Positions 13,283 to 55,323 of a stretch of 64,000 bases of DNA are shown in pieces. A model generated the notes under the pieces. The model was not told the origin of the DNA. It saw nothing but the letters and a program-made list of their open reading frames with translations, and searched no databases. Each line of letters opens with the position of its first letter. Within the stretch, counting starts at the first letter, position 1. Position numbers and translations under genes: made by a program. This DNA comes from Dehalococcoidales bacterium. Lineage in GTDB: Bacteria; Chloroflexota; Dehalococcoidia; Dehalococcoidales; RBG-16-60-22. The stretch is taken from contig DAOULX010000008.1 of assembly GCA_034414775.1 (NCBI GenBank), positions 659 through 64,658 on the forward strand. The letters run 5' to 3'.

Positions 13283-13295
13283 ATTTTAAAATCTC

Positions 13296-39567: not shown

Positions 39568-39627
39568 AGAAATGCCATGATTAGATGTCAAGGGCATAAA
39601 AAAGGGGAGGAGATTACCGCCCCCCTT

Positions 39628-39666
39628 CTGGATTCCCGCTTTCGCGGGAATGACGTCGGGAATGAC
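39628..39666. repeat. GC-rich hairpin repeat (GTCATTCCCGCGAAAGCGGGAATCCAG type) plus partial duplicate
   Basis: ctggattcccgctttcgcgggaatgac is followed by gtcgggaatgac. The same module occurs at 45909-45936 (ctggattccagctttcgctggaatgaca). Confidence 0.8.
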
Positions 39667-39677
39667 GTTGGGTTTTT

Positions 39678-40676
39678 TTACTTTTTCCTGTTCTTCAGCG
39701 CCTCCCGCTTGTCGATGCATTCCTTGACCGAGACGGCGATATCCTCGGCGCGGAGGCCGAAATGCACCTTGAGCTCGTCGATTTCCGGGGTGATTTTCCC
39801 GGACTGGCTGAACTCATCCTCGACGCCGACCTTGACGACAGGCGTGGGCAGGTTTTCAGCAAGGACGGCTGCCACCCCATCCCCCAGCCCGCCGATGATG
39901 CTGCCGTTCTCCGCCGTAACAACAGCACCGGTAGCCTCGGCGGCTGCGATAATGGCCTCCTCATCGAGCGGCTTGAGGGTACACATGTCCAGGATACCCA
40001 CGTCCAGACCGTCTTTCTCCAGAATATCGATCGACCGGATCGCCTCGGTCAGCATATAGCCGGTGGCGATGATAGTGGCATCTTGACCATCCTTAATGGC
40101 GAAAGCCTTGCCGATATCGAAGGGAAGATCCTCGGCGAATATTTTCATCGAAGGCGGACTCGACTCTTGCCGCAACAGCACCGGGCCGATATACTGTAAC
40201 ATGGCCTCGGCGGCCTTCTCCGCCTCGACGGCATCCGAGGGATTCATAATCACCAGATTAGGCAGTACCCGCGTACTGCCGATACCTTCGACGGTATTGT
40301 GAGAGATGCCCGTCTCACCCCAGACGCCTTCGCGCCCGATGAACTTCACGTTAAAGCGGTCGACCAGGATGCTCTGCCTTATCTGGTTGTACGCACGACC
40401 GACATCGGCGAAAAGGAAGCTATAGATGATGGGGATAAACCCTTCCGCGGCCAATCCACCCGCCACCGCTGCCCCGTTCTGCTCGGCGATGCCGCACTCT
40501 ATCATGCGCTCCGGCGCGTTCTCCTTGAACCACAGCAGGCCCGGGAAACCCATGTCCTCCAGGACGGCGAGAATGCGTTTATCTTTAGCTGCCGCCGCCG
40601 TGATCGCCTTTTCGATGCCCTGTGCCACTGGGCTGGGCTTGTCCTCTATCTGAACGTACTTGTTAAAGGTCGGCAT
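39678..40676 (-). CDS. transketolase, C-terminal (pyrimidine-binding) subunit
   Basis: 332 aa containing CGIAEQNGAAVAGGLAAEGFIPIIYSF. It overlaps the N-terminal subunit gene by 14 nt. Confidence 0.9.
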   Translation of the reverse strand: MPTFNKYVQIEDKPSPVAQGIEKAITAAAAKDKRILAVLEDMGFPGLLWFKENAPERMIECGIAEQNGAAVAGGLAAEGFIPIIYSFLFADVGRAYNQIRQSILVDRFNVKFIGREGVWGETGISHNTVEGIGSTRVLPNLVIMNPSDAVEAEKAAEAMLQYIGPVLLRQESSPPSMKIFAEDLPFDIGKAFAIKDGQDATIIATGYMLTEAIRSIDILEKDGLDVGILDMCTLKPLDEEAIIAAAEATGAVVTAENGSIIGGLGDGVAAVLAENLPTPVVKVGVEDEFSQSGKITPEIDELKVHFGLRAEDIAVSVKECIDKREALKNRKK

Positions 40677-41565
40677 ATTTTTCTCTCCCTTCCCGGATGC
40701 CCTTCATAATGACCTCACCCCGCCCCAGGTGAATGTGCTCGCGCTCCCAGGCCGGAACGCCGTGACCCTTTACGGTGTGGGCAATGATGCATTTGGGCCG
40801 GTAATCGCCGTAGAGCTTGTTGGTCAGGTCCAGGGTATCGAGGATCTGGCGGATGTCGTGGCCGTCGATCTCGGTGACCCACCAGCCGAAGGCCTTCCAC
40901 TTATCAACGAGGGGTTCTATGTTCATTATTTCATTGGTGGGGCCGTCCAGCGAGAACTTGTTGTAATCGACGATGGCAATCAGGTTATCCAGCTTGTACT
41001 TGGCGGCGAACATGGCGGCCTCCCAGACCATGCCTTCCTGGCACTCTCCATCGCCGAGTATGCAGTAAGAGCGGTAAAGGGGATCGAAGCGGACAACATA
41101 GCGCTGCTGGGATCTGCCCTGGCTGACGTTGATATCCGCGATGGCGGATTTCAGCTTCTCGGCGTAGGCCATCCCCACGGCAAAGGACAGACCCTGTCCC
41201 AGGGAGCCTCCTGAATAGTCGATACCCGGGGTGCACCAACGGTCGGCGTGGCCCTGGAACGGCGAGCGATAGCAATAATACGTCTTGAGGGTTTCTTTGG
41301 GGTAGACGTCCAGCTCCACCAGGGCGCCGTAAATGGCCTCGCAGCAGTGCGCCTTGGAGAGCACGACGCGGTCCCGCTCCGGCCAGTCGCAGTTTTTCGT
41401 GTCGAACTTGATGTGATGGAAATACAGGGCGGTGATAAGCTCGATGATGGACATCGTACCACCGCCGTGTCCCATCTGGGCGAACTCGAAGATATCAAAG
41501 CAGTTTTTTCGAACCAGGTTGGCCTTCTTTTCCAGGTCCCGGATCAGTTTATCATCATGCGCCAT
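40663..41565 (-). CDS. transketolase, N-terminal (ThDP-binding) subunit
   Basis: It contains MGHGGGTMSIIELITALYFH and ILGDGECQEGMVWEAAMFA. I prefer the start MAHDDKL at 41565; the ORF-track start is 41589. Confidence 0.9.
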   Translation of the reverse strand: MAHDDKLIRDLEKKANLVRKNCFDIFEFAQMGHGGGTMSIIELITALYFHHIKFDTKNCDWPERDRVVLSKAHCCEAIYGALVELDVYPKETLKTYYCYRSPFQGHADRWCTPGIDYSGGSLGQGLSFAVGMAYAEKLKSAIADINVSQGRSQQRYVVRFDPLYRSYCILGDGECQEGMVWEAAMFAAKYKLDNLIAIVDYNKFSLDGPTNEIMNIEPLVDKWKAFGWWVTEIDGHDIRQILDTLDLTNKLYGDYRPKCIIAHTVKGHGVPAWEREHIHLGRGEVIMKGIREGREKYADL

Positions 41566-41758
41566 ATTTTTGCCGCCCTTTCGTTTCAATATCGACTGTA
41601 TCCAGGGTGAGCTTGCTGCCGCAGCGCGGGCAGGCGTTGCCGTAGAACCCCAGCACCGTCTCCTCGGAGGGTATCGCCCGCATGTAGAGCCGGCGTTTTA
41701 TCTCCTCCCCGAAGTAGAGTAGCATGCGGCACTTCTTACAGTTGATCTTTTCGGTCAT
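41555..41758 (-). CDS. small zinc-ribbon protein (CxxC...CxxC)
   Basis: 67 aa with CKKC and CPRC pairs. Its stop overlaps the transketolase start (ATGGCGCATGA), which suggests translational coupling. Confidence 0.5.
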   Translation of the reverse strand: MTEKINCKKCRMLLYFGEEIKRRLYMRAIPSEETVLGFYGNACPRCGSKLTLDTVDIETKGRQKYGA

Positions 41759-41831
41759 CGTTACCTCGCTTTCTGTTATGGTTATTAGCTTTTAGCCATT
41801 AGCTGTTACTTTTCACCACCCCACCTTATAC

Positions 41832-41948
41832 CCTTTGTCATCCTGAGCACCCTTTGTCATCATGAGCGGAGCGAAGGATCTCGGGGCGTGGTGGATCCAA
41901 ACTCCCCACCCCGAGATTCTTCGGTCGCTACGCTCCCTCAGAATAACA
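41832..41948. repeat. inverted pair of TGTCATYCTGAG-type repeat modules
   Basis: tgtcatcctgagc (41836) and tgtcatcatgagcggagcgaaggatctcggggcgtggtgg (41856-41894) face ccccaccccgagattcttcggtcgctacgctccctcagaataaca (41904-41948). Confidence 0.8.
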
Positions 41949-41955
41949 TGGGCGT

Positions 41956-42969
41956 TTACGGCTTAATCAAAATCTTGATTGATTTGCCGGCTTTATGAAG
42001 CTCGAAGGCCTTCCGTATCTCGGCCAGGGGGACGATGTCCGTTATCAGAGGCTCGATCTCGAGCTTGGGCAGCATTTTCAGCGCTCGCGGGAACGAGTAC
42101 GGCGAGACGAAAGTGGAGGTAATAGTAAGCTCCTTGGCGTACATCAGGAACGGGGAAACGACGATCTCCACATCCTTACCGTACACGGCCGCCCAGAGTA
42201 TCGTAGCGCCGTTATCGGCCAGCGCGATGGCCTGTTTGGCGGCGTTCACATTGCCGCTGGCATCGATAACCGTATTAAAGCCGCGTCCGTCGGTCAGCTT
42301 CTTCCCGGCCTCTATGATGTCCTCGTTGAAGGGGTCCACCGCCACGTCCGCCCCGAGCTTTTTGGCCAGGGCGCGCTTTTCGGCGATCGGCTCGGACAGC
42401 AGCGTCCGTGCCGCGCCGGCATGAAGGGCCATCTCCAGGCAAAGCAGGCCGATGGGACCTCCCCCGCAGATAGCGACGGTGCTGCCGGTGCCGACGTTGG
42501 CCCGGTCAATAGCGTGTACGGCCACCGAGACCGGCTCGAGGAAGGAGCCGACCTCCATGCTGATATCATCTGGCAGCAGGTAGATGGCGCTCTCCGGATA
42601 GACAGCATATTCGGCAAAGGACCCGCTGGCATGTTCGCCACGCCGGCAGAAGTTCTCCATCCCGTTGCGGCAATAGTCACACGCCCCGCAGGAACTGCGG
42701 AAGTCCATGGCTACCCTCTGGCCGACCCGGTAATCTTTAATATTGCTGCCCGTGGCAGCAATTGTCCCCGAGGCTTCGTGGCCGAGTATCCTGGGCTGTT
42801 CATAGGCCTCCGGCGGCACCAGGCCGAAACGCCCCTCCAGGTTTTCAGGATCGGTGCCGCAGATTCCGCAATAGGCTATCTTGACCTTGATATCATTCGG
42901 CCCCATTTCCGGCTCAGGGACTTCTTCCATGTTGATGTTCCCGATGCCTCTCATGACCGCTGCTTTCAT
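41956..42969 (-). CDS. zinc-dependent alcohol dehydrogenase (MDR family, sorbitol/threonine dehydrogenase-like)
   Basis: It contains CGICGTD, GHEASG, the structural zinc site CGACDYCRNGMENFC and the nucleotide motif ICGGGPIG. Confidence 0.85.
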   Translation of the reverse strand: MKAAVMRGIGNINMEEVPEPEMGPNDIKVKIAYCGICGTDPENLEGRFGLVPPEAYEQPRILGHEASGTIAATGSNIKDYRVGQRVAMDFRSSCGACDYCRNGMENFCRRGEHASGSFAEYAVYPESAIYLLPDDISMEVGSFLEPVSVAVHAIDRANVGTGSTVAICGGGPIGLLCLEMALHAGAARTLLSEPIAEKRALAKKLGADVAVDPFNEDIIEAGKKLTDGRGFNTVIDASGNVNAAKQAIALADNGATILWAAVYGKDVEIVVSPFLMYAKELTITSTFVSPYSFPRALKMLPKLEIEPLITDIVPLAEIRKAFELHKAGKSIKILIKP

Positions 42970-43027
42970 AGCAGAATCCTCCTTCGTTACTTACGAGTTA
43001 ACAGCTTTAGTTTTAACCCCCAAATAA

Positions 43028-43492
43028 CTACTGCTTCATCTCGCGGAACTCGATAGCTATGCCCCCGGTGGGCGTCGGGTCCGAGTAGATAAAAGGGCCG
43101 CCCGCTGCGGCGCCCTTCGTCCAGATGCCGACTCCGTTGCTCTTAAAATTGGCGATTTCACCGTCAAGGTCATTGGTGACGAATCCGATGTGATGCAGGC
43201 CCTCACCGGTTTCATCCAGGGACTCCTTGAGGGCCTGGTCGCCCTCGGTTGGCTCCAAGAGCTCGAGTTCCACGTCGCCGAGGCGGACACTGCTGATGGT
43301 GGTCGTCCATTCGGCGGGCTTGCCGTGCAGCTCTCCCTGGAAAGAGACCGGGAACGCCTTTTGCCCCCTCGGCCCCTCGAACGGCCCGATCCCCAGGGTT
43401 TCCAGATATTCTATCGCCTTCTTGATGTCCTTGACGACAATCCCCACGTGGTGGAGCTTCCCGTAAGATCTCCGAAAGGTGTTATCCGCCAT
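43028..43492 (-). CDS. VOC (glyoxalase/bleomycin-resistance/dioxygenase) family protein, methylmalonyl-CoA-epimerase-like
   Basis: 154 aa containing LHHVGIVVKDIKKAIEYL and GLHHIGFVTND. Confidence 0.75.
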   Translation of the reverse strand: MADNTFRRSYGKLHHVGIVVKDIKKAIEYLETLGIGPFEGPRGQKAFPVSFQGELHGKPAEWTTTISSVRLGDVELELLEPTEGDQALKESLDETGEGLHHIGFVTNDLDGEIANFKSNGVGIWTKGAAAGGPFIYSDPTPTGGIAIEFREMKQ

Positions 43493-43576
43493 AGCGCCTC
43501 CCTTTACGTCTTAACTACGGGGAAAAAGATGCCACGACCAGTGTATCCGGGGTGCTGAATGTTGTCAAACCAGCGC

Positions 43577-44326: not shown

Positions 44327-44401
44327 GGAACCTCCTTTGAAATATTACGTACTGGCCTGAGGACGTACGTGCTCCTTTTCTCAACTTCTCTTTTTTTATA
44401 A

Positions 44402-45029: not shown

Positions 45030-48000
45030 TTACCGGAAATCCTTCGAAGCCGGCACCTTGTCCAAAGCAGTAAACGGCTCCACCCGCGTGATGACGAGGT
45101 TGCAGGTCCCCTCCCGCCGGGTGAGACGCCCGCTGACCACCAGGAACGGCATCTTGAACTTGGGCTCGTGGCGCCCGTAGACCTTGGGGAAGACCATGCA
45201 GGGGATGTGCCCGAACTCGTCCTCCAGGGTGATGAAGGTCACCTTGCCCTGCGGCCGCTGCCGGCGGATGACCATCCCGGCCGTCGTCACCGGGGCGCCG
45301 TCCCCGAGCCGCGCAATGTCACGGCTGGTGCGCACTTCCGGCCCGAAACCGGGCCGCAGCCGGGACATGATGTGCCCGGCGGGAAAGAGGCTGAGGACGC
45401 TGTACTCTTCTTTCATGCGCTCCCACTCGCCGGGGGCCTCCAGCTCCACCAGGTCCTGCGCGACGGGCAGGGGAAGGGGCAGCTGGGAGTTGACCGGCCG
45501 GTAGCGCAGGCCGATCTCCCATTTGACCTTGCGGCGGTTCGACTCCAGGCCGTCGAAGGCCCCGGCGCCGGCCAGGTTGAGGGCGACCTCTTCCAGCACG
45601 CCGGTGCGCTCCAGGAAGTCCCCGATGCCGCGGAACTCGCCGTTTTCACGCGCCTTTTCGATGGCCTCGGCGGCGGCCCCACCCAGCCCCAGGACGTTGA
45701 GGAAACCCAGGCGCAGGGCGGCGTGAATAAATCCCTCTCTAGCTCTCCCCTTACGAAGGGGAGAGGATGGGCCTTCAAGCCCTTCTTTTGATTTAGCACC
45801 ATCTGTTTCCCTCCTTCGTAAGGAGGGATTAAGGGAGAATTCCTCAACTCTCCCCCTTCCGTAAAGGGGGATTAAGGGGGATTTTCCCCCTCCTCTCCCA
45901 ACATCCGACTGGATTCCAGCTTTCGCTGGAATGACACTAAACGAACTGTCATTCTGAGGGAGCGCCGCGACCGAAGAATCCCGGAGAGAGGCGGTACACT
46001 CCCCACCCCGAGATCCTTCGCGGAGTTTACCCTGAGTGTAGCCGAAGGGCTCAGGATGACAACTATGGAGCTCAGGATAACAAAAAAGGGAATCGGGATG
46101 ACATTCTTCTATAACGCACTTGGCCCGGCTCTTGTTTATATCCGGATTCAGCACCCGTATCCCGTGCCGTCGGGCGTCCTCCTTGAGTGTCTCCAGGTTA
46201 TAGAAGCCCATCGGCTGCTGGTTGAAGATGGCCACGAAGAACTCCAGCGGGTAATGGTACTTCATCCAGGCCGCCTGGTAGGCCGTCACCCCGAAGGCGA
46301 AGGCGTGCGATTCCGGGAACATGTACTGCCCGTTGAACTTCTTAAAGACCTTTTCGGCCGATGCCTCGTCGACGCCTTTTTCGGCGGCCCCGGCGAGGAA
46401 TTTTTGCCGGTAGTCCTCGATGAGCGCCTCGTTGTGCTTTCTGCCGAAGGCGCGGCGCAGCCGGTCCGCCTCGCTGGGCGAAAAGCCGGCCACGTCGATA
46501 GCGAGCTGGTTGACCTGGTCCTGAAAGAGGACGATGCCCAGGGTGCGCTCCAGGGCCCGCCGCTCCAGCGGGTGGTCGTAGGTGACTGGCTTGCGCCCGG
46601 TGCGCCGGGACAGGTACTCGTGCACGCCGTGGTTAACGCCCACCCCCGGCCGCACCGCCCCCACCTCGTGGGCCATGTCCAGCAGGTTGCGCGGCCGCAG
46701 CCGGGTGATGGTCTGCATCTGAGCGGCCGATTCCACCTGGAAGATGCCGATGGTGTCCCCACGGCAGAGCATGTCGTAGACGTCATTGTCCTCGAAGTCG
46801 ATGCGGGAGAGGTCGATGCGGCGGCCGGTGCGCTCTTTGATAAGGCCGACGGCCTCCTGCATCTGGGAAAGGGCCCCCAGGGCCAGGAAATCGATCTTGA
46901 CGAAACCGGCGTCATCGATGCTGTCCTTGTCCCACTGGCAGACGTAGCGGCCCTCGATGGCGCCCCGCTGCACCGGCACGATGTCGATGAGGGGGCTGGA
47001 CGAGAGAATCATGCCGCCGGGGTGCTGGCCCAGGTACTTGGGAAAGCCGTCCAGCTCGGCGGCGAGGGCAATCAGGTCCCGCCAGACCGGGGCGTCCGTC
47101 CGGTCCTTAAAAGCGGGTATCTTCTTCATCTTTTCTTCGAGCTTGCGGGCGCTGCCCCAGTCCACGTTTTTGGCAAGCTGGTCGACCTCCGGCTCCGGCA
47201 GGCCCAGCGCCTTACCGAGGTCGCGCACGGCCCCCTTGACCATGTAGGTATTGATGGTGCCGGTCAGGGCAGCGTGCCGCCAGCCCCATTTCTCGTGGGT
47301 GCGCAGGATGAGGTCCTCGCGGATGCTGCGGGGAAAATCGAGGTCGATGTCCGGCACGTTGGTCATGACGTCCTCGGGAAGGAACCTCTCCAGCGAGAGG
47401 CGGTACTGGAGGGGGTCGATGTGCGAGAGGCCGATGAGGTAGCCGACCAGCAGTGCCACCGAGGAGCCGCGCCCCCGCCCCGGCGGGGCCTCCTCGAGGG
47501 TCAGGGAGGGGTCGCTGAGCCCCTGCTCGATCATGACCTCCCGCCCCAGATTGATGACCTCGTGGTACATCAGCAGGAAGCCGGCCAGGTTATAGCGGTT
47601 AATCAGACGGAACTCCTCGTCGAGGCGAGCGCGCACGGCCGGGGTGACGGAGCCGTAGCGCCGCACGGCCGCCTCCGCGCAGAGCTTTTCCAGGTAGCTC
47701 TCCGGGGTGAAGCCTTCCGGCACGGGGTAGTCCGGAAAGGTGTAATCCAGGTTCCGCGTCAGGTCGAACGAGCACCTCCCGGCGATTTCCACGGTATTGG
47801 CCAGGGCCTCCGGGCAGTCGCGAAAGAGCTCCTCCATCTCCGAGATAGGCCGCAGGTAGAACTCGGAGTTGGGGCGCCTTTCCCGGTGCGTCTCCTCAAG
47901 ACTCTTGCACTCTTTAATGGCGACCAGACAGTCCTGGAGACGGTGGCGCTCGCGGACGTGGTAGTGGACGTTGCCGGTAGCGGCCACCCGGGCGCCGGTC

Positions 48001-48566
48001 TCCCGGGCCAGCCCCAGCAGGGCCAGGTTGCGGGCCGTATCCCCGTAGACCAGGTTCTGCTGCAGCTCGATGTAGTAGCTGTCCGTCCCGAACCAGTCCA
48101 GATACCGACGGACAAGCTCCCTGGCCGCGTCCGGGGGCGCCTTGCCGATTAACTGCGCCAACTCGCCTTTCGGGCAGCCGGACAGGGCGATGAGGCCTTC
48201 CGCGTGGGCGGGGAGGAGGGCGGAATCGAGCTCGGGCTCGTAGCGCTCGCCGGAGGCATGGGCGGCGGTGATGAGACGGCAGAGGTTGCGGTAGCCCCGG
48301 CTGTCCTTCACCAGCAGGGTCAGGTGGCCGCCGCCTTTGAGGGTCATCTCCGTGCCGATGATGCCGGGCACCTCCAGGGAGCGGGCCAGCCGGGCGAAGC
48401 GCATCGCCCCGCAGAGGTTATCATGGTCGGTGACGGCCAGGGCGCGGTAGCACAGGTCTTTGGCGCGCGCCAGCAGCTCCTCCAGCGACGAAGCGCCGTC
48501 GTGGAAGGAGTAGTAGCTGTGGCAGTGAAGCTCGGCGTAAGGCATGGTTCCAAATCGGTCTGTCAT
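45030..48566 (-). CDS. dnaE2: error-prone DNA polymerase III alpha-type subunit DnaE2 (ImuC) carrying a repeat-derived in-frame insertion
   Basis: It has the PHP N-terminus YAELHCHSYYSFHDGASSLEELL..ALAVTDHDNLCG and is collinear with the DnaE body. The first ATG (48566) lies inside a repeat module, so the ATG at 48545 (MPYAELH) is the more likely start. Confidence 0.85.
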   Translation of the reverse strand: MTDRFGTMPYAELHCHSYYSFHDGASSLEELLARAKDLCYRALAVTDHDNLCGAMRFARLARSLEVPGIIGTEMTLKGGGHLTLLVKDSRGYRNLCRLITAAHASGERYEPELDSALLPAHAEGLIALSGCPKGELAQLIGKAPPDAARELVRRYLDWFGTDSYYIELQQNLVYGDTARNLALLGLARETGARVAATGNVHYHVRERHRLQDCLVAIKECKSLEETHRERRPNSEFYLRPISEMEELFRDCPEALANTVEIAGRCSFDLTRNLDYTFPDYPVPEGFTPESYLEKLCAEAAVRRYGSVTPAVRARLDEEFRLINRYNLAGFLLMYHEVINLGREVMIEQGLSDPSLTLEEAPPGRGRGSSVALLVGYLIGLSHIDPLQYRLSLERFLPEDVMTNVPDIDLDFPRSIREDLILRTHEKWGWRHAALTGTINTYMVKGAVRDLGKALGLPEPEVDQLAKNVDWGSARKLEEKMKKIPAFKDRTDAPVWRDLIALAAELDGFPKYLGQHPGGMILSSSPLIDIVPVQRGAIEGRYVCQWDKDSIDDAGFVKIDFLALGALSQMQEAVGLIKERTGRRIDLSRIDFEDNDVYDMLCRGDTIGIFQVESAAQMQTITRLRPRNLLDMAHEVGAVRPGVGVNHGVHEYLSRRTGRKPVTYDHPLERRALERTLGIVLFQDQVNQLAIDVAGFSPSEADRLRRAFGRKHNEALIEDYRQKFLAGAAEKGVDEASAEKVFKKFNGQYMFPESHAFAFGVTAYQAAWMKYHYPLEFFVAIFNQQPMGFYNLETLKEDARRHGIRVLNPDINKSRAKCVIEECHPDSLFCYPELHSCHPEPFGYTQGKLREGSRGGECTASLRDSSVAALPQNDSSFSVIPAKAGIQSDVGRGGGKSPLIPLYGRGRVEEFSLNPSLRRRETDGAKSKEGLEGPSSPLRKGRAREGFIHAALRLGFLNVLGLGGAAAEAIEKARENGEFRGIGDFLERTGVLEEVALNLAGAGAFDGLESNRRKVKWEIGLRYRPVNSQLPLPLPVAQDLVELEAPGEWERMKEEYSVLSLFPAGHIMSRLRPGFGPEVRTSRDIARLGDGAPVTTAGMVIRRQRPQGKVTFITLEDEFGHIPCMVFPKVYGRHEPKFKMPFLVVSGRLTRREGTCNLVITRVEPFTALDKVPASKDFR
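45731..46103. repeat. composite block of hairpin / TGTCATYCTGAG modules lying inside the dnaE2 reading frame
   Basis: Hairpins lie at 45743-45765, 45808-45828, 45851-45871 and 45876-45890. The GGAATCCAG-type hairpin lies at 45909-45936. tgtcattctgagggagcgccgcgaccgaagaatc starts at 45947, its inverted partner ends at 46061, and further heads lie at 46066-46080 and 46088-46103. Confidence 0.8.
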
Positions 48567-48649
48567 TCCGAGCGATAGCGAAGAATCTCGGAGAGGGGCG
48601 GCGGAAAAGTCCCACCGCCCCGGGACCCTTCGCTCCGCTCAGGGTGACA
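48561..48649. repeat. inverted pair of TGTCATYCTGAG-type repeat modules in the dnaE2 5' region
   Basis: tgtcattccgagcgatagcgaagaatctcggagaggggcggcgg faces cccaccgccccgggacccttcgctccgctcagggtgaca. Confidence 0.8.
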
Positions 48650-48717
48650 ACGAAAAACGGTTTTTAATTTTAAGCTATGGCTTTAAGCTCATTCAGGATT
48701 TAGAGCTTAGAACTTCC

Positions 48718-49002
48718 CTAATAATCCTGTTGATACCACTCCCCGCTGATAATGTCCTTGTAAAGCACCGCCCGGTGCCCGGAGGCGAGGCGGACACTGT
48801 AATAGAGGCGCGCCACCGGCTCGCGGCGCCACCACTCGTCGTCGATGCGCCAGCAGTCCTTGATGTCCGTCACGACCTGACGCCGCTTTGCCCGGACGGC
48901 GGCCGGCAGCCCTTCGGCGTCTTCCTCGACGTGCACCGGCTCCGGGGCATTTACCGGTTTGCTGGCGTCAGCGCGTAGCGTCTCTCCGGTATCCGGGACC
49001 AC
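48718..49002 (-). CDS. small Trp-rich conserved-looking protein between imuB and dnaE2 (function unknown)
   Basis: 94 aa containing CWRIDDEWWRREPVARLYYSVRLASGHRAVLYKDIISGEWYQQ. The ATG start overlaps the imuB 3' end by 52 nt. An alternative GTG at 48936, after GGAG, would avoid the overlap. Confidence 0.55.
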   Translation of the reverse strand: MVPDTGETLRADASKPVNAPEPVHVEEDAEGLPAAVRAKRRQVVTDIKDCWRIDDEWWRREPVARLYYSVRLASGHRAVLYKDIISGEWYQQDY

Positions 49003-50129
49003 GGCTCGACCTCCTTGACCGTGAACACCTGGGGATTGCCCAGCCGGAACTCAAGCTGGCGGATATCGTCCATCAGGTGGTCTTTGGCCCTGACCCTGGA
49101 GAACAGGCTGCGCTGCCGTCCCCGCGGGTAGCCCAGGCCGGTGATCCGCAGGCCCACCTGCTCCACGGGGCCGGGCTGGGGATAGCTCTCCAGTACCCGC
49201 TTGATGCGGTTAACGGCGGCCCGGATATCCATGGCCGGCTCCTTGAACTGGATGCCCCTCTCCCAGTGCTCCGCCCCCCAGGTACGCGTCCACAGGGTCA
49301 GGCCACGGATACCCCTCCCCCGGGAGCCGTCCCGCGCCATGGCCTTGACGAGAAGATCCTCCACCGCCACCAGGACGGCCTCCAGGGAGACGGTCACCGA
49401 GGTCAACGCGGTGCTCTCCTCGATGGTCTCCTCGCCGCCGCGGGGATACAGCGGCGTGTCGTCTTCGCCCCGCGCCAGCGCCGCTATCCTCCGGCCCTCC
49501 TCGCCGAACTGGGACTGGAGGGGGCCGGGGGCCAGGGCCGCCAGCTGCCCCAGGGTATTTATCCCGAAATCGTGCAGGCGGTCTTTAATCCTGATGGAGA
49601 CGGGCAGGACGTCGCAGGGCAACTCCCGGAGGAAATCCCCCGCCTCCCCCGCCAGTATCCGGTGCCCGCCGGGAGGGCCGCGGCGGGTGGCCAGATACGC
49701 CAGGAACTTGTTCCCGGCAATCCCCAGGCAGGGGGAGAAGATATCGGGTACGGCTTCCCTCATCGCCGCCAGCAGGGCGTCATCATCCGGGTAGATAAGC
49801 TGGAGCCCGTCCACGCCGACGTAGGCACAGCCCAGCTCGTCGCCTTCCACCAGAGGGCTCCTCTCTTCCAGCGCGTCCAGTATCTCATCGAAGGCGGACC
49901 AGTAGCGGGGCATATCGGCGGGGAGCAGTCGGGCCTCCCCATAGCGGGCCAGGGCCTGCTGGAGGGGCATGCCGGATTGCAGGCCTTCCAGCCCGGGGGA
50001 GTAGTCCAAGACGAGCTTCTGCGAGCCCGCGGCGGCGGTTATCACCGCCGGGCGGCCCTGGATATCCGGTTGCTTCCGGACCTCGCACATGAGGGGAAAA
50101 TGCGGCAGCAGTATACAGAGTATTCTCAT
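48951..50129 (-). CDS. imuB: ImuB, Y-family-polymerase-like mutasome subunit
   Basis: It begins MRILCILLPHFPLMCEV, where DinB has its catalytic acidic residues, as expected for ImuB. The IMS-like body contains GIAGNKFLAYLA and HDFGINTLGQLAAL. The start at 50129 is preferred over the ORF-track start at 50165. Confidence 0.8.
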   Translation of the reverse strand: MRILCILLPHFPLMCEVRKQPDIQGRPAVITAAAGSQKLVLDYSPGLEGLQSGMPLQQALARYGEARLLPADMPRYWSAFDEILDALEERSPLVEGDELGCAYVGVDGLQLIYPDDDALLAAMREAVPDIFSPCLGIAGNKFLAYLATRRGPPGGHRILAGEAGDFLRELPCDVLPVSIRIKDRLHDFGINTLGQLAALAPGPLQSQFGEEGRRIAALARGEDDTPLYPRGGEETIEESTALTSVTVSLEAVLVAVEDLLVKAMARDGSRGRGIRGLTLWTRTWGAEHWERGIQFKEPAMDIRAAVNRIKRVLESYPQPGPVEQVGLRITGLGYPRGRQRSLFSRVRAKDHLMDDIRQLEFRLGNPQVFTVKEVEPWSRIPERRYALTPANR

Positions 50130-50151
50130 GGTTTCACCCCGGCAAGTAACC

Positions 50152-50181
50152 ATTATATAGAACATTAGTTCTGTTTGTCAA
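50152..50181 (-). promoter_or_regulatory. SOS-type promoter: TTGACA / TATAAT with a Cheo-type LexA box in the spacer
   Basis: On the minus strand, TTGACA (50181-50176) is followed by an 18-nt spacer containing the palindrome AGAAC-ATTA-GTTCT (50159-50172) and then TATAAT (50157-50152). The imuB ATG is at 50129. Confidence 0.65.
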
Positions 50182-51303: not shown

Positions 51304-51329
51304 AGCCGGCCGCAGGACGCGGCCGCAGT

Positions 51330-52535: not shown

Positions 52536-53629
52536 TTACGTTAGAACGCGTGAACAAACGCTACGGTGAAACGGTCGCTGTCAGCGAACTTTCCCTGGAA
52601 ATCGGGGAGGGCGAGGTCTGTATCCTCATCGGGCCGTCCGGCTGTGGAAAAACGACAACACTACGCATGATGAACCGACTCGTCAGGCCAACCTCAGGCC
52701 GCATTTTAATCGATGGTAAAGATACCAGCCGAATTTCCCCGGAGAAGCTGCGCCTCTCGATCGGTTATGCCATCCAGAGCGTCGGCCTTTTTCCTCACCT
52801 GACCGTATCACAAAATATCAGCGTCGTACCACAGCTCCTGCACTGGGAAAAAGGCCGGGTGAGGCAGCGCATTGAAGAGCTATTGGAGCTGGTGGGACTG
52901 GACGCCACCGAATACTCCCATAAATACCCCTCCCAACTCTCCGGGGGAGAAGCTCAGCGTATCGGGGTGGCCCGGGCGCTGGCGGCAGACCCACCCATCA
53001 TGCTCATGGACGAACCATTCGGCGCCGTCGATCCACTTACCCGCGAGAGGCTCCAGGCCCAGTTCCTGCGTATCCAGCAGGAAGTGAAAAAGACCATTGT
53101 CCTGGTGACGCATGACCTCGATGAGGCCATCCGCCTGGCCGACCGCATTGCCATCATGGAGTCAGGACGGCTGGTGCAGTACGATACTCCGGAAACGATA
53201 CTTTCCCGGCCCGTCAACATGTTCGTCCGAGACTTTGTCGGTACCGACCGCGCCCTGAAGCGTCTTTCCCGTATCAGCATCAAAAGCTACATTAAAAAAG
53301 CTCCCTCAGTCTCCATAGAAAGCAAGCCGCAGGAGGCGCTGGCTGGTGCCGGGGACTTCCGCTGGCTGTGGGTGGTGAACGATAACGGGAGTCTCATCGG
53401 CTGGGTCGACAGGGACAACCTGACGAAAGCGGCTTCCATCAGCGAGGTCATGGACCATAGGGGGGCTAGCGAGATCTCGATAACTGAAAACGCCAGCCTC
53501 AAAGAGGCTTTGTCAAGGATGCTGGGCCTTGGTTTCCGACATCTCCCCGTCATTGACGAGGAAGGCCGCCTCCTCGGAGAGCTGGCCCTGCATGACGTCG
53601 AGTCCGCCACCATGGACGGAGACGATTAA
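52532..53629 (+). CDS. ABC transporter ATP-binding protein with C-terminal CBS pair (OpuCA/OsmV-type)
   Basis: GTG start after AAGGAGGGA, overlapping the permease stop. It has Walker A GPSGCGKTT, the signature LSGGEAQR and Walker B IMLMDEP. The CBS region contains FRHLPVIDEEGRLLG. Confidence 0.9.
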   Translation: MITLERVNKRYGETVAVSELSLEIGEGEVCILIGPSGCGKTTTLRMMNRLVRPTSGRILIDGKDTSRISPEKLRLSIGYAIQSVGLFPHLTVSQNISVVPQLLHWEKGRVRQRIEELLELVGLDATEYSHKYPSQLSGGEAQRIGVARALAADPPIMLMDEPFGAVDPLTRERLQAQFLRIQQEVKKTIVLVTHDLDEAIRLADRIAIMESGRLVQYDTPETILSRPVNMFVRDFVGTDRALKRLSRISIKSYIKKAPSVSIESKPQEALAGAGDFRWLWVVNDNGSLIGWVDRDNLTKAASISEVMDHRGASEISITENASLKEALSRMLGLGFRHLPVIDEEGRLLGELALHDVESATMDGDD

Positions 53630-53632
53630 ACA

Positions 53633-54394
53633 ATGTTCCGATTGCAGGCTCAGGCCAGGCGGTGGATCTTTCTCGTTATTGCGGTAGCGGCGTTTATCGT
53701 GATCATTGCCAATATGGGCTGGTGGCAGACCGCCTTGCACTACCTGTTCCCGTCGGAGACCACCGTACTCCACCCGCGTGCCAATCTCGGGGTGCTCGTC
53801 TGGGAGCACATTCAGCTCGTCGTTATTTCGAGTGCTATTACCATTATCCTAGGCATACCGCTGGGAATATGGGTCACCCGCCCCGGCGGACGGGACTTCC
53901 TACCGCTGGTGACGGATATCGTTTCCTTCGGGCAGACCTTCCCGCCGGTGGCCGTCCTGGCGCTGACCGTGCCCATGCTGGGTTTCGGCCTGGTACCCAC
54001 CGTCGTCGCCCTGTTCCTCTACGGCCTTCTCCCGGTCGTCCGCAACACCATCGCCGGGCTGCGGGCCGTGCCTCCCCATCTCCTCGATGCGGCTTACGGC
54101 CTGGGCATGGGGCGGTTCCAGGCGCTCTACCGGGTGGAAATCCCCCTGGCCGTGCCGGTGATTATCGCAGGGGTACGTATTTCGGTGATTATAAACATCG
54201 GGACGGCAATGATAGGGGCGGTCATCGGCGCCGGCGGCCTCGGCTCGCCAATCGTCGCCGGCCTGGTGCGTGATAACCTGGCCTTCATCATCGAGGGGGC
54301 CCTGCCGGCGGCCATGCTGGCCATCCTGGCCGACCAGCTCCTGGGCAACATCGAGAGCCTCTTTGCCTACGAAGGAAGGGCTGCATCGGTATAG
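53633..54394 (+). CDS. ABC transporter permease (Opu/Osm-type)
   Basis: 253 aa containing FLYGLLPVVRNTIAGLRAVPPHLLDAAYGLGMG, an EAA-like loop. Confidence 0.85.
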   Translation: MFRLQAQARRWIFLVIAVAAFIVIIANMGWWQTALHYLFPSETTVLHPRANLGVLVWEHIQLVVISSAITIILGIPLGIWVTRPGGRDFLPLVTDIVSFGQTFPPVAVLALTVPMLGFGLVPTVVALFLYGLLPVVRNTIAGLRAVPPHLLDAAYGLGMGRFQALYRVEIPLAVPVIIAGVRISVIINIGTAMIGAVIGAGGLGSPIVAGLVRDNLAFIIEGALPAAMLAILADQLLGNIESLFAYEGRAASV

Positions 54395-54395
54395 T

Positions 54396-54487
54396 AAACA
54401 GTTGTCAGTTTACAGTTTACAGTTTACAGTCCCCACCCCGACCCCTTTTCTAGAAAACTGTAGGCTGTATACGGTATACTGTAAACC
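54396..54487. promoter_or_regulatory. CAGTTTA heptamer tandem (3.5 units) plus inverted ACTGTAAAC copy just upstream of the second etfB
   Basis: cagtttacagtttacagtttacagt (54406-54430) and actgtaaac (54478-54486) are exact reverse complements of each other's core. A related aaaactgtagg lies at 54455-54465. Confidence 0.35.
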
Positions 54488-54489
54488 AA

Positions 54490-55281
54490 ATGCTGAATAT
54501 TATCGTCTTTGCCAAGGTCGTCATCGATCCCGAAGCCCCCGCCTCCACTTTCAAACTCGATCCCGAAGGACAAAGGGTCGTGCCCGGAGCCGGCGTACCG
54601 CCCGTGGTGAATCCCTACGACGAGAACGCTCTGGAAGCCGCTTTGAGACTTAAAGAAGTCCAACCCTGTAATATAACGGTTATCAGCGCCGGCAAGACCG
54701 TACCGAAGGCCATCGTCAGGAAATGCCTGGCGGTAGGCGCCGACAACCTGGTCGTCATCGAAGACGAAACGCTCGATAACGCCGATAGCCATACTACCGC
54801 CCGGATACTCGCGGCGGCTGTGCGAAAACTGGAAGATTTCGACCTTATCCTGGCTGGCCGCATGGCGTCGGATACCAATGCCGGTCAGGTCGGCGCCGGT
54901 ATAGCCGAATTACTGGGCATTCCTGCCGTCACTACCGCCCGTAAAATAGAAGTCAATGGGAACCATGTACGCATAGAAAGCGCCCTGGCCGACGGCCATG
55001 AGGTTGTTGAGAGCGGCCTGCCCTGCCTGATCACCGTCAGCCATGAACTGGGGGAGATAAGGCCTGCCGGCGTCAAAGGGCTGATGGCGGCCCAGAAACA
55101 GCCTTTTACCGCCTGGAAGGCTGCCGACCTGGAGGTGGAATCATTGTCCCTGCAAAGGAACCGGACAATACGCCTGTTCATCCCGGAAAAAGCGGTGAAC
55201 TGCGAAATGCTCGACGGCGCTACGCCAGAGGAAGCCGGGGCCGCCCTGGCACTCAAGCTGCGGGAGACTGCCGGGATATAG
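54490..55281 (+). CDS. etfB: electron transfer flavoprotein beta subunit, second copy, without an adjacent alpha subunit
   Basis: It begins MLNIIVFAKVVIDPEA and contains NPYDENALEAALRLKE, LILAGRMASD and GAGIAELLGIPAVT. 263 aa. Confidence 0.85.
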   Translation: MLNIIVFAKVVIDPEAPASTFKLDPEGQRVVPGAGVPPVVNPYDENALEAALRLKEVQPCNITVISAGKTVPKAIVRKCLAVGADNLVVIEDETLDNADSHTTARILAAAVRKLEDFDLILAGRMASDTNAGQVGAGIAELLGIPAVTTARKIEVNGNHVRIESALADGHEVVESGLPCLITVSHELGEIRPAGVKGLMAAQKQPFTAWKAADLEVESLSLQRNRTIRLFIPEKAVNCEMLDGATPEEAGAALALKLRETAGI

Positions 55282-55286
55282 AATAA

Positions 55287-55323
55287 TGTCATTCTGAAGG
55301 CACGAAGCGACCGAAGAACCTCG
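55287..55323. repeat. single TGTCATTCTGA-type repeat module at the etfB / pseudogene junction
   Basis: tgtcattctgaaggcacgaagcgaccgaagaacctcg. Confidence 0.75.

Follow-up and report, generated by a model that had tools for sequence, protein, structure and literature searches.

Palindromic repeats at the imuB-dnaE2 locus

The window (the whole 64,000-nt stretch of Dehalococcoidales DNA analysed here) carries a gene for the error-prone DNA polymerase DnaE2, its imuB-like partner upstream, and a series of short palindromic units lying within and around them (Table 1). The encoded DnaE2 has PHP, NTPase, finger, HHH_6 and OB domains and is 100% identical to P0001. The imuB-dnaE2 gene order is common to loci L001, L002 and L243, and the spacer between the two genes also bears repeats in L002, L244, L248, L250 and L259.

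Table 1. Repeat units and associated genes in the window
Feature	Position	Strand	Remarks
Loose c-like hairpin	39602..39627	+	AAGGGG, 14-nt loop, CCCCTT; read from sequence
Module b unit CGTCATTCCCGCGAAAGCGGGAATCCAG, CGTC-1 REP	39628..39655	-	Definition from PMC3733652
Tandem partial tag-proximal module b copy ACGTCATTCCCGA	39656..39668	-	TRF 12-nt period, 2.3 copies
Partial tag-proximal module a copy TGTCATCCTGAGCACCCT	41836..41853	+	TRF 19-nt period at 41830-41867
Module a dimer, tags outward	41854..41949		Units 41854-41888 (+), 41904-41949 (-)
dnaE2, error-prone DNA polymerase III alpha, 1171 aa	45030..48545	-	Pfam
In-frame, stop-free segment, 390 nt	45717..46106	-	Composite of at least 8 repeat units
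Module c hairpins in dnaE2	45743-45765, 45808-45828, 45851-45871		Within 45743..45895
GGGGGATTTTCCCCC inside dnaE2	45872-45895		Adjoins module c hairpins
Module b unit with TGTC tag in dnaE2	45909..45936	-	Encodes SVIPAKAGIQ
Module a dimer in dnaE2	45946..46062		Units 45946-45984 (+), 46005-46062 (-)
Two partial tag-proximal copies TTGTTATCCTGAG, ATGTCATCCCGAT	46071..46104	-	21-nt period
Module a dimer, imuB-dnaE2 spacer	48560..48650		Units 48560-48596 (+), 48610-48650 (-)
imuB-like gene (IMS family), upstream partner of dnaE2	48951..50165	-	Pfam
Possible remnant, module a tail/spacer part CCCCACCCCGA...	54431..54445	+	Weak; cf. 41901-41916, 46000-46015
Solo module a unit, long inner-stem form	55286..55323	+	5 nt past etfB stop

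The original prediction distinguished three recurring modules, and a window-wide census bore this out. For module a (pattern TGTCATYCTGAG…GAAGRATCT), the seed TGTCATYCTGAG with at most one mismatch gave 10 matches against 0.42 expected, a count reached in none of 100 shuffles; nine of the ten fall at 41836-55298, and the three inverted pairs and the lone copy are present where they had been proposed. The 27-nt module b sequence was found at both of its proposed sites (39628-39654 and 45909-45935, minus strand in each case; 0.00 expected). Module c forms perfect 8- to 10-bp stems at the three positions in dnaE2, together with the looser hairpin at 39602-39627. Tandem Repeats Finder (TRF) showed that the tag-proximal end also recurs as short partial copies in tandem, with a period of 12 nt at 39645-39672 and the 19-nt period listed in Table 1. 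Within the window, modules a, b and c occur only between 39.6 and 55.4 kb. The proposed confinement to a GC-rich block is true within the window, but it is not a property of the elements, which also occur in low-GC hosts and viral contigs. The three modules are not one family as had been suggested, because a and b share a YGTC tag and a stem starting A-T/T-A, whereas c differs. Other perfect hairpins remain in the window, for example at 1040-1079 and 16141-16161, and are unrelated to the modules.

Intergenic copies lie 5 to 8 nt past stop codons or directly before dnaE2. The dimer at 41854..41949 begins 7 nt downstream of the stop codon of a Zn-dependent alcohol dehydrogenase (ADH) gene (41956-42969, minus strand) and sits upstream of a small ORF and split transketolase genes. 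Between imuB and dnaE2, the dimer stops 15 nt short of the dnaE2 start codon, on its upstream side. Here the apex of unit 48560-48596 is GCGATAGC, and unit 48610-48650 has a compensated ACCCT/AGGGT stem. The hairpin at 39602..39627 occupies a convergent spacer downstream of fixABCX-like genes, and a T-run at 39672-39679 adjoins the partial module b copy next to it. About 50 nt past the solo unit at 55286..55323 lies a CCG-domain pseudogene fragment (~55371-55530), 5'-truncated and interrupted by stops, which by tblastx is a paralogue of 7899-9164; no etfA remnant was found downstream of etfB (54490-55281). The deletion breakpoint proposed at 55.3 kb is plausible.

Structure and affiliation of the modules

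In module a units, a 5' TGTC tag and a CT tail, both unpaired and invariant, flank a stem of 5 outer bp, a tandem G·A/A·G and 2 inner bp, closed by a GNA or GNNA loop. Among 275 unique units, conservation is limited to about 28 nt, and the Y/R pair is T-A in 145, C-G in 124 and mismatched in 6. The outer triplets are fully complementary in 180 of 244 units collected without selection on the 3' side, in combinations that include ATG/CAT, ACC/GGT and GTC/GAC. A formal covariation count found 94.8% of cells paired, compared with 85.9% in shuffles, and double (compensatory) changes at all five variable pairs. The covariation score was 0.349 against 0.168 in shuffles; none of 500 shuffles reached it, and slid controls gave at most 0.13. 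Nearest-neighbour folding of single units was no better than that of shuffles (z of about 0 to +1.6), because the model gives sheared G·A pairs and GNA loops no credit. The structure of module a therefore rests on covariation together with published mini-hairpin chemistry. The apex of module a is GCGNAGC or GCGNNAGC, sequences that form extraordinarily stable DNA mini-hairpins, resistant to nucleases and poorly bound by SSB (Hirao and co-workers; PMC13037366). The apex of module b, GCGAAAGC, and the GCGATAGC apex of module a at 48.57 kb are also mini-hairpin sequences. The apices of both modules match these motifs exactly, although the published motif is a physicochemical feature of complementary-strand origins in single-stranded DNA phages and not a dispersed repeat family (PMC13037366).

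The two module b copies fold at -9.0 and -7.8 kcal/mol (z = -6.2 and -6.4). The unit at 39628..39655 has a CGTC tag, an 8-bp stem beginning A-T then T-A, a GAAA loop and a CCA tail. Module b has all the defining features of CGTC-1 REPs as set out by Di Nocera, De Gregorio & Rocco (2013; PMC3733652): a CGTC or TGTC tag, an 8-bp stem with the A-T/T-A start, a 4-nt loop and a CCA tail. It also encodes peptides known from CGTC-1, VIPAKAGI and DSRFR.ND. That study equates CGTC-1 with Neisseria dRS3 and Rickettsia conorii RPE-6 and lists VIPAKAGI for R. conorii. Module a is a TGTC-tagged variant of the superfamily to which CGTC-1 belongs. Like the four CGTC families described there, it has a YGTC tag, a stem of nine positions that starts A-T/T-A and a short tail left unpaired, and it forms tags-outward dimers and leaves no target-site duplications (TSDs). 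It differs in the tandem G·A that interrupts the stem, the 3-nt GNA loop and a CT(C) rather than CCA tail. Going by the text descriptions of CGTC-2 to CGTC-4, it would be distinct from each of them. The CGTC study states that repeats with more than one stem mismatch were dropped, and no a-type peptide appears among the intragenic REPs that it tabulates (PMC3733652). No Rfam family matches the repeat units. Module c and other units recognizable by their peptides (GEARRG...GEGDKGGEV, YPPDPLPLAREGG) represent additional families of GC-rich hairpins from the same lineage.

An in-frame insertion hot spot in dnaE2

The copies predicted inside dnaE2 are indeed located there, but the gene is unbroken and its ORF continues through them. 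The segment at 45717..46106 supplies 130 codons where empty sites have 3, between ...AKCVIE and LRLGF. Its part at 45743..45895 encodes SPLIPLYGRGR...SSPLRKGRAREGF, peptide units of which recur in the homologues P0006, P0019, P0030 and P0047; unit 46005-46062 carries a nested insert, CCCTTCGGCTACACTCAGGGTAAACTCC, within its apex; and the copies at 46071..46104 encode the 7-residue peptide repeats CHPDSLF and CYPELHS. In the AF2 model the insert is a coil (pLDDT ~25) between strands 811-814 and 942-945, and the stacks, at the tip of a beta-hairpin, are predicted to form a disordered surface loop.

We surveyed dnaE2 in 71 Dehalococcoidales-like loci picked irrespective of the insert site. The site is empty in 44 and filled in 27 with differing mixes of repeat families, and all 27 inserts (111-405 nt) are in frame and stop-free. 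State changes on the tree indicate at least 13 gains or losses, and insert content and length vary even among close relatives. Complete pairs elsewhere are distributed 26/21/20 by length modulo 3, with only about two of six frames open. There is a second in-frame insertion site at a turn in the PHP domain; when aligned with Taq Pol III alpha, each of the two sites falls in a loop. Across ~790 kb of Dehalococcoidales loci, all 33 intragenic insertions are in dnaE2 and none in other genes, alongside 57 intergenic copies. This striking preference, which 'random insertion plus selection' does not account for, weighs against the explanation favoured below. The key point that the original prediction lacked is that the dnaE2 copies form an insertion without stops, kept in frame, at a hot spot that is hit repeatedly.

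Arrangement and host range

Among 405 units, 304 are solo. Pairs with tags outward number 101 and pairs with tags inward 19; tandem partial copies are numerous. Complete pairs measure 45-160 nt and have ~28-nt inverted termini that start with TGT and end with ACA. Both the window and unrelated hosts contain partial copies of the tag-proximal arm, repeated in tandem at periods of 12-24 nt. Nested 'CCTGA...GAAGG' modules are present among the units, and nested insertion is evident from comparison of L001 with the window.

The 25-nt core of module a has exact matches in viral contigs and in metagenome-assembled genomes and isolates that span more than 15 phyla; low-GC hosts, for instance Phocaeicola and Planktothrix, are among them. 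The units occur in long-read chromosomes, in isolates (Hymenobacter glaciei JCM 17225, Mucilaginibacter sp. L196) and in cultured cyanobacterial plasmids. They are mostly intergenic and near gene ends: in genomes 12 of 228 lie inside long ORFs, compared with 126 of 228 random positions, and in viral contigs 31 of 209, compared with 109 of 209. Intragenic copies fall in turns or linkers and always preserve the frame; real in-frame cases outside dnaE2 are found in the linker of a terminase large subunit, a portal protein and the linkers of an NtrC-like regulator.

Origin and spread of the repeats

In our view the modules are probably palindromic repeats of the REP type, non-coding and non-autonomous. 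Each unit has a 5' tag (CGTC or TGTC) that stays unpaired, a stem whose first two pairs are A-T and T-A, a small loop, and a short tail that is likewise unpaired. The units are dispersed, their stems are kept by compensatory change, and they build outward-tag dimers, tandem partials and nested composites without TSDs. The units would spread as single-stranded hairpin DNA, cut or copied and then pasted at replication forks or gaps in a REP/IS200-like manner, with a putative trans-acting nuclease or recombinase recognizing tag and stem; we put this mechanism forward tentatively. Purifying selection would remove each insertion that breaks a needed gene, which would be why the dnaE2 stacks are all multiples of three, stop-free and at a beta-hairpin tip. 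Intergenic copies beside stop codons probably act as putative 3' RNA hairpins that stabilize or terminate transcripts.

The REP/BIME-like, modular and stackable organization envisaged originally agrees with the CGTC-1 features of module b and with the stacking, nesting and tags-outward dimers. The MITE-like alternative offered beside it would make the units deletion derivatives of DDE-transposase insertion sequences, with TGT...ACA terminal inverted repeats (TIRs), mobilized in trans and leaving TSDs. Although the inverted termini of complete pairs resemble those of many DDE elements and an IS3-type HTH_Tnp_1 fragment lies in the window at 31163-31306, three quarters of the units are solo, each 'TIR' is itself a covarying hairpin, and the units nest and form 12-21-nt partial tandem copies. 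No TSD of 2-8 nt at any offset exceeded the shuffle control in 83 complete pairs, and no gene, transposases included, recurs as a neighbour of the units, all of which makes classical MITEs very improbable. The RAYT/IS200-type transposase that might have accompanied the repeats was likewise missing from the fetched DNA, where approximate query sequences found no Y1/RAYT homologue in 15,577 ORFs (2.7 Mb); in PMC3733652, CGTC REPs are viewed as having no dedicated transposase. Spread might instead have needed no enzyme, copies multiplying by hairpin-induced slippage, template switching and gene conversion, with the sequence conserved since only a Py-GA-Pu tandem mismatch plus a GCGNAGC mini-hairpin behaves so. 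The tag-proximal partials here and in unrelated hosts, the nested modules, the lack of a transposase, and the nuclease resistance and poor SSB binding of mini-hairpins (PMC13037366) all speak for this. Slippage, however, covers local duplication and not dispersal to unlinked loci, and it leaves unexplained the invariant unpaired TGTC tag and CT tail and the near-identical units in unrelated phyla and phages; we think it unlikely as a full account, while giving it some weight.

It is quite improbable that the hairpin is a site-selected RNA or DNA signal (a terminator, mRNA stabilizer or protein site, perhaps for a near-universal protein such as gyrase, primase or RNase) rather than selfish DNA. 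Positions just past the ADH and etfB stops or 5' of dnaE2, strong conservation with covariation, the mainly 3', transcribed REPs of other species and the GCGNNAGC hairpins that mark primase-dependent origins in G4-type phages (PMC13037366) would suit such a signal. Close relatives nevertheless differ in copy number and location, a single codon position having undergone at least 13 gains or losses; units are found in either orientation, fragmented, nested or within ORFs; and most copies have no following T-run and none has an Rfam match. We also doubt that selection maintains the dnaE2 insert as a protein feature, a disordered loop of variable content tuning the ImuB-DnaE2 mutasome, for which the repeats would merely be raw material. 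All 27 inserts are in frame in the sole gene targeted in the Dehalococcoidales loci, and unrelated REPs lie in other dnaE2 and repair genes, but most orthologues lack an insert, the inserts are unconserved among close relatives, these DNA units lie between genes elsewhere, the prediction for the loop is disorder, and frame preservation shows merely that dnaE2 is needed. Faulty assembly or binning, or two genomes joined into a chimera, could account for the confinement to GC-rich DNA: GC rises from ~45% to ~58% near 30-31 kb, a second assembly's contig with the identical dnaE2 stops at window position ~29,770, and five dnaE2 contigs from other samples end exactly at the repeat site. This is scarcely credible given an identical repeat-bearing 1171-aa DnaE2 in two assemblies, units in long-read chromosomes, isolates and cultured plasmids, and covariation and frame preservation beyond what assemblers can make.

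Relation to known repeats

The REP-type reading has parallels in several systems. GTAG-tagged REP/BIME and REPIN elements, mobilized by the HUH Y1 enzyme RAYT (TnpA-REP), are likewise small hairpins with an unpaired tag that form dimers, lack TSDs, are mostly extragenic and are suspected of a single-strand mechanism. They differ in their tag, in the RAYT that neither flanks nor accompanies our units in the fetched DNA, and in being species-specific, whereas the module a core is near-identical across phyla. Rickettsia palindromic elements, like other intragenic MITE/REP insertions, also insert in frame within unrelated genes at fold-compatible positions, but RPE-1 is ~150 bp and genus-restricted; the units described here are 25-45 nt, stack and nest, and in Dehalococcoidales show high turnover at two codon-level hot spots of a single gene. 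The small dispersed repeats (SDRs) of heterocystous cyanobacteria, according to what Elhai et al. reportedly described in 2008, are 21-27 nt long, look mobile, lack TSDs and nest within one another and within hairpins. Module a units are present in cyanobacterial plasmids and resemble SDRs in these general traits.

Vertical descent of a selfish element can hardly explain why 25-mers are nearly identical in more than 15 phyla; this counts against the favoured explanation and implies horizontal spread or a strong common constraint. In PMC3733652, CGTC REPs are reported from Proteobacteria, Chlorobi, Bacteroidetes, Spirochaetes and Thermotogae and not from Chloroflexota. The window resembles those cases in its tags-outward dimers, the lack of a linked transposase and intragenic copies, which in those cases too lie in repair genes including dnaE2; it differs from them in mixing CGTC-1 with at least four other hairpin families in one 390-nt coding segment, and the published dnaE2 cases occupy other protein positions. 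Unrelated families of REPs were recorded there in dnaE2 of Sphingomonas wittichii and Opitutus terrae, and REPs also in uvrA, uvrB, uvrD, recB and polA, which those authors considered non-fortuitous (PMC3733652). The dnaE2 stacks of the Dehalococcoidales thus extend a phenomenon known since that 2013 report, the presence of REPs inside dnaE2 and other repair genes.

Repeats in the window and their gene context

The window has about 40 to 50% GC over 1-31 kb and 56 to 66% thereafter. The original prediction described a family of hairpin repeats confined to the GC-rich block, and its coordinates proved accurate. The module a seed TGTCATYCTGAG, with at most one mismatch allowed, matched the window 10 times against an expectation of 0.42, with 9 of the matches falling within 41836-55298, and the module b 27-mer was found at 39628-39654 and 45909-45935, where 0 occurrences were expected. 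Repeat finding recovered the inverted arms at 41.9, 46.0, 48.6, and 55.3 kb, and module c consists of perfect 8- to 10-bp hairpins at three positions. No member of the module a, b, or c families was detected in the 64-kb window outside 39.6-55.4 kb. Tandem partial copies are also present, with a TRF period of 12 nt at 39645-39672 and of 19 nt at 41830-41867.

Genes and repeats of the 39.6-55.4 kb region, and complete module a dimers in Planktothrix
Feature	Position	Strand	Remark
fixABCX-like genes	up to 39.3 kb		Pfam
Intergenic repeat cluster	39.6 kb		Convergent spacer
Split transketolase	39678-41589	minus	Pfam
Intergenic repeat cluster	41.9 kb		7 nt past ADH stop
Zn-ADH	41956-42969	minus	Pfam
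dnaE2	45030-48545	minus	Pfam
Module c hairpin	45743-45765
Module c hairpin	45808-45828
Module c hairpin	45851-45871
Intergenic repeat cluster	48.6 kb		15 nt ahead of dnaE2 start
imuB-like gene	48951-50165	minus	Pfam
OpuA-type ABC transporter	50.3-54.4 kb		Pfam
etfB	54490-55281		Pfam
Intergenic repeat cluster	55.3 kb		5 nt past etfB stop
Complete module a dimer	AP017994.1 8088-8167		L325, Planktothrix agardhii NIES-204 plasmid3
Complete module a dimer	NZ_LR882964.1 17175-17254		Planktothrix agardhii

A deletion breakpoint had been proposed at 55.3 kb, and this is plausible: no etfA remnant was found downstream of etfB and its repeat unit, and directly after this solo module a unit lies instead a 5'-truncated, stop-interrupted fragment of a CCG-domain Fe-S oxidoreductase gene (55371-55530), an intact paralogue of which lies at 7899-9164. 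The AT-rich tracts noticed in the original prediction are located at 54398-54430 and 54470-54487, 41780-41810, and 48665-48715. Upstream of etfB, the heptamer ACAGTTT is repeated 4.7 times, and an inverted partner of it, ACTGTAAAC, follows 40 nt downstream. Stretches rich in TTAGC/GCTAA directly precede the small ORF at 41760 and the dnaE2 leader; these tracts may belong to promoters or operators instead of to the repeats.

Other signals were observed elsewhere in the window. A perfect hairpin with an 18-bp stem, CAGTGAATAACCCCCCAGC-AAGC-TGGGGGGTTATTCACTG, at 1040-1079 is unrelated to the repeat families, and a smaller CCCCCCAAGCTTGTTGGGGGG hairpin occurs at 16141-16161. In-frame 18-nt tandem repeats at 15894-16012 (5.9 copies) and 4123-4203 (two adjoining arrays of 2 to 2.5 copies) presumably encode peptide repeats. 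Several direct repeats with a fixed spacing of about 10.6 kb (1948-2753 and 12552-13352) and inverted repeats pairing 5149-5433 with 14704-14979 and 6340-6413 with 18516-18589 look like paralogous transporter and oxidoreductase gene sets in the AT-richer half. Near both window ends is a 62-nt direct repeat, 79% identical (925-986 and 62786-62847), whose right copy lies 130 nt downstream of tRNA-Pro(GGG) (62582-62658); the two copies could flank an integrated region of approximately 62 kb as att-like ends. Where GC shifts, at about 30-31 kb, lies a 47-aa fragment of IS3-type HTH_Tnp_1 (31163-31306, minus strand), and in a second assembly the contig with the identical dnaE2 (GCA_964393175.1, CAYMSP010000014.1, 36 kb) stops at about window position 29,770; possible readings of the interval 29770-31306 are the boundary of an island, variation between strains, or a chimeric join.

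Module b is a CGTC-1 repeat in a new host

The GTAG- and CGTC-tagged REP superfamilies were defined by Di Nocera et al. 2013 (PMC3733652). CGTC REPs are described there as having a tag that is often TGTC, 8- to 9-bp stems opening with an A-T and then a T-A pair, 4- to 5-nt loops, a CCA tail, a mostly tags-outward dimeric arrangement, and no dedicated transposase; family CGTC-1 is equated with Neisseria dRS3 and R. conorii RPE-6.

Module b reads (C/T)GTC-ATTCCCGC-GAAA-GCGGGAAT-CCAG and forms a strong hairpin (-9.0 kcal/mol, z = -6.2). Its tags, on the minus strand, are CGTC at 39652-39655 and TGTC at 45933-45936, both within the range of CGTC-1, in which CGTC may be replaced by TGTC or CCTC. 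The two copies, ATTCCCGC-GAAA-GCGGGAAT and ATTCCAGC-GAAA-GCTGGAAT, share the 8-bp stem with its A-T then T-A start and the 4-nt loop of CGTC-1, the second copy carrying a compensatory C-G to A-T change relative to the first, and both end in ...GGAATCCAG, a short unpaired 3' tail that fits CCA. The peptides VIPAKAGI, SFPRKRES, and DSRFRRND, which appear in the intragenic REP table of PMC3733652, are module b peptides. Module b is a CGTC-1 member in a new host, the same paper reporting no CGTC REPs from Chloroflexi. Of 80 related loci, 8 contained module b, with 12 units in total, and viral contigs gave at least 120 stretches with module b; modules a and b are seldom together outside the Dehalococcoidales lineage. 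The corresponding viral census of module c is uninformative, since chance alone would be expected to produce its 16 specified palindromic bases.

Module a is an apparently undescribed variant

Module a reads TGTC-ATYCT-GA-GC-GNA-GC-GA-AGRAT-CT, with a 5-bp outer stem, tandem G·A/A·G, two G-C pairs, and a three-base loop. A folding program returned this shape without special energy (z about 0), and the structure was therefore tested by comparing copies. Information content in the 275 unique copies, which came from 240 public loci, was limited to about 28 nt and was zero elsewhere, and the free Y/R pair was T-A in 145 copies, C-G in 124, and mismatched in 6. Among 244 copies unselected on the 3' side, the outer triplets were fully complementary in 180, with combinations such as ATG/CAT, ACC/GGT, and GTC/GAC. 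The 63 distinct 25-mers displayed double changes at all 5 variable pairs, 94.8% paired cells compared to 85.9% in shuffles, and a covariation score of 0.349 versus 0.168, which 0 of 500 shuffles reached (slid controls, at most 0.13); the bases GTC, CTGA, and GAAG were fixed by the search patterns. The inner part is a variable mini-hairpin that can hold nested CCTGA...GAAGG modules. Its apex sequences, GCGNAGC and GCGNNAGC, are known as extraordinarily stable, nuclease-resistant DNA mini-hairpins that are poorly bound by SSB (PMC13037366). Resemblances to a hammerhead, a K-turn, an IncP nic site, a CsrA site, and a LexA box, judged by eye, were dropped, since each is broken by covarying or variant positions.

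Module a has the YGTC tag and the A-T then T-A stem start of the superfamily: GTC itself is part of the search pattern, T directly precedes it in 73 of 83 pairs, and columns 4-24 and 5-23 are A-U and U-A in 53 and 51 of the 63 sequences, respectively. As in the superfamily, tags-outward dimers predominate (101 at 45-250 nt, versus 19 tags-inward pairs within 250 nt); 304 solo units and tandem partial copies of the tag-proximal arm were also seen. In place of an uninterrupted 8- to 9-bp stem, a 4- to 5-nt loop, and a CCA tail, it has tandem G·A at positions 9-10 and 18-19, a 3-nt GNA loop, and a CT(c) tail. On account of these departures, module a is a variant of the CGTC-tagged superfamily that lies outside families 1 to 4 as these are described in text. 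The pipeline of PMC3733652 threw out repeats with more than one stem mismatch, and its intragenic REP table lacks module a-type peptides. Literature searches for the repeat peptides and DNA strings found no description of module a, and it is apparently undescribed.

In-frame insertion in dnaE2

The 1178-codon dnaE2 ORF stays open throughout the 390-nt stack (45717-46106), at which the Pfam HHH_6 domain is split. At this site, the DNA of orthologue L002 reads ...ATT GAA|AGC GGC GCT|CTG CGC..., and in the window these flanks are 390 nt apart. L001, an orthologue closer to the window, has the 3' part of the stack in common, with units nested within a module c hairpin. The window is placed in Dehalococcoidales by the similarity of its DnaE2 to that of MAGs of this order. 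About half of the best 120 DnaE2 homologues are 1042 to 1045 aa long, and the others have 18 to 242 additional residues at exactly the same point, made of recognizable repeat peptides. To escape ascertainment bias, 80 metagenome dnaE2 loci were fetched by using the 798 residues upstream of the insertion site as the sole query. Both flanks were present in 71 loci, of which 44 were empty and 27 were filled (111 to 405 nt), and all 27 filled sites were in frame and without stops. A neighbor-joining tree indicated at least 13 gains or losses. Five further contigs (L258, L263, L276, L279, and L315) stop no more than 150 nt past the N-terminal flank, and thus the repeats appear to break short-read assemblies.

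An intrinsic in-frame bias of the elements was considered and rejected, since the lengths of complete module a pairs elsewhere are spread evenly modulo 3 (26/21/20) and, with stops in most frames, on average only about 2 of 6 frames are open. The dnaE2 frame is therefore kept by selection and is not a property of the element. The 44 empty sites were searched for a shared DNA target or hairpin, and none was detected; neither the three turn codons nor the sequence on either side is constant.

A second in-frame site lies in a turn of the PHP domain, E-V/I-T-L|KGG|H-L-T-L-L. L261 carries a full module a pair there, L270 and L253 carry single a units, and L248 and L258 have an 8-residue hairpin. 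Both sites align with loops of Taq Pol III alpha (PDB 2hpi), the main site with the turn of a beta-hairpin ahead of the HhH motif and the second with a PHP loop in which Taq itself has 14 extra residues. An AlphaFold model, used for this statement alone because of its poor overall quality (mean pLDDT 57, shallow alignment), predicts a coil for the insert, at pLDDT about 25, flanked by strands 811-814 and 942-945. The same repeat families occurred 57 times between genes over about 790 kb of related loci, with the imuB-dnaE2 spacer as a hot region, and no gene other than dnaE2 carried them. Empty and filled sites at the DNA level, a preserved frame, and loop positions recall the Rickettsia RPEs, a precedent for in-frame insertion in behavior, not in sequence family.

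A 94-aa ORF without a Pfam match (48718-49002, minus strand) overlaps the end of imuB and precedes dnaE2. It is conserved in several relatives, including L002 (5060-5344) and L243 (544-828), and might belong to the mutagenesis cassette as its third component.

Occurrence beyond the window

The 25-nt module a pattern was found in at least 120 stretches of viral contigs and likewise in at least 120 stretches of species-representative genomes; these counts are lower bounds, and the taxa are a sample. Among the matches listed were MAGs or isolates of Nitrospirota, Chloroflexota, Acidobacteriota, Saccharibacteria, Gracilibacteria, and Omnitrophota; the Bacteroidota Phocaeicola plebeius, Mucilaginibacter sp. 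L196, and Hymenobacter glaciei JCM 17225; and members of Bacillota, Planctomycetota, Verrucomicrobiota, Gemmatimonadota, Alpha- and Deltaproteobacteria, and Fibrobacter. The 25-nt core is essentially identical across more than 15 phyla and phage contigs. Among cultured plasmids and phages, a strict search with a C/G-type dimer gave no match. A relaxed search detected module a on plasmids of cultured Planktothrix, Calothrix, Gloeothece, Phocaeicola, Hymenobacter, and Granulicella, and found it essentially absent from cultured phages; matches in Streptomyces phages were rejected, as they were located in the arbitrary spacer of the query. The P. agardhii dimers lie within annotated CDSs, for a 1546-aa hypothetical protein and an MmeI-type restriction-modification enzyme, and are accompanied by 21-nt tandem partial copies. 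Small dispersed repeats of cyanobacteria were reportedly treated by Elhai in 2008, and the units may overlap with them.

Module a units are strongly depleted from long ORFs, in which 12 of 228 units lie in genomes (126 of 228 random positions) and 31 of 209 in viral contigs (109 of 209 random positions). Genuine in-frame units were found in terminase large-subunit linkers, in both linkers of a sigma-54 activator, and in an SPP1-type portal protein, where the site is filled in L019 and empty in L011. Two homologous phage tail or baseplate genes (L005, 577-587; L080, 11594-11604) carry a single unit at the same position as a compensated pair, TGTCATTCT...AGAATCT encoding CHSERSEES and TGTCATCCT...AGGATCT encoding CHPERSEGS; a third tail-protein relative, in L011, has an unrelated 10-residue segment there.

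Mobility and competing explanations

REPs rank with the longest-standing puzzles of bacterial genomes, and their CGTC branch is not known to have a mobilizing enzyme. The modules studied here are probably REP-type hairpin repeats of at least three families that pile up in spacers and within one another and, inside genes, persist only where a turn or linker accepts an in-frame loop. The MITE-like alternative of the original prediction did not hold up: TIR-like ends are present, but target-site duplications are absent, counts in 83 module a pairs equaling the shuffle control at all tested offsets (0 to 3) and lengths (2 to 8), and DDE-type MITE transposition is effectively excluded. The association with a RAYT/IS200-type transposase that had been proposed for checking did not emerge either, phmmer with RayT, IS200, and IS608 TnpA (approximate query sequences) giving no Y1 transposase match at E < 0.01 among 15,577 ORFs in 2.66 Mb of fetched loci. 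The units thus differ from RAYT-mobilized REPs and REPINs in having a YGTC rather than a GTAG tag and no RAYT in the fetched DNA. Clustering of ORFs around 240 unit-bearing loci revealed no recurring neighbor gene, just phage structural genes of related viral contigs and generic SDR genes. In Rfam 15, the sole match in the window at the gathering score was tRNA-Pro, and an E-value scan of 39.5-55.5 kb returned chance-level miRNA and snoRNA matches alone.

Tentatively, we favor movement by a single-strand, tag-and-hairpin-specific cut or copy and paste that would be carried out by a factor acting in trans; enzyme-free slippage or template switching seems to us rather unlikely. These readings do not account for the near-identity of the module a core across phyla or for the exclusive preference for dnaE2 in the Dehalococcoidales lineage, which echoes a published bias toward repair genes. 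In PMC3733652, REP clusters are given within dnaE2 of Sphingomonas wittichii (aa 166-246) and Opitutus terrae (aa 934-971), and intragenic REPs also within uvrA, uvrB, uvrD, recB, and polA, an association judged non-fortuitous. A further reading, which we consider a long shot, is that the TGTC mini-hairpin is a single pan-bacterial, phage-borne, horizontally traveling ssDNA element and that its repeated occupation of dnaE2 reflects a mechanistic link to SOS or gap repair. During the SOS response, copies of the units would then be placed in single-stranded or transcribed loci, perhaps through the ImuB-DnaE2 machinery acting near its own gene; alternatively, the inserted loops might tune mutasome activity and hence be kept. 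Related REPs in the other repair genes would fit the same link.

Significance

Units of this kind produce many spurious small ORFs, lengthen proteins in MAG annotation, and break metagenome contigs, as in the five dnaE2 contigs that stop at the site. The shared 25-nt core, compensated stem, and mini-hairpin apex of module a point to a structure-specific, possibly universal partner. Dehalococcoidales dnaE2 is a natural experiment, with two codon-level hot spots, about 40% occupied, at least 13 gains or losses, and inserts that are always in frame. These data greatly strengthen the proposal, made in 2013, that the presence of REPs in genes for repair polymerases is no accident, and allow it to be tested through insert-bearing versus insert-free dnaE2 alleles.
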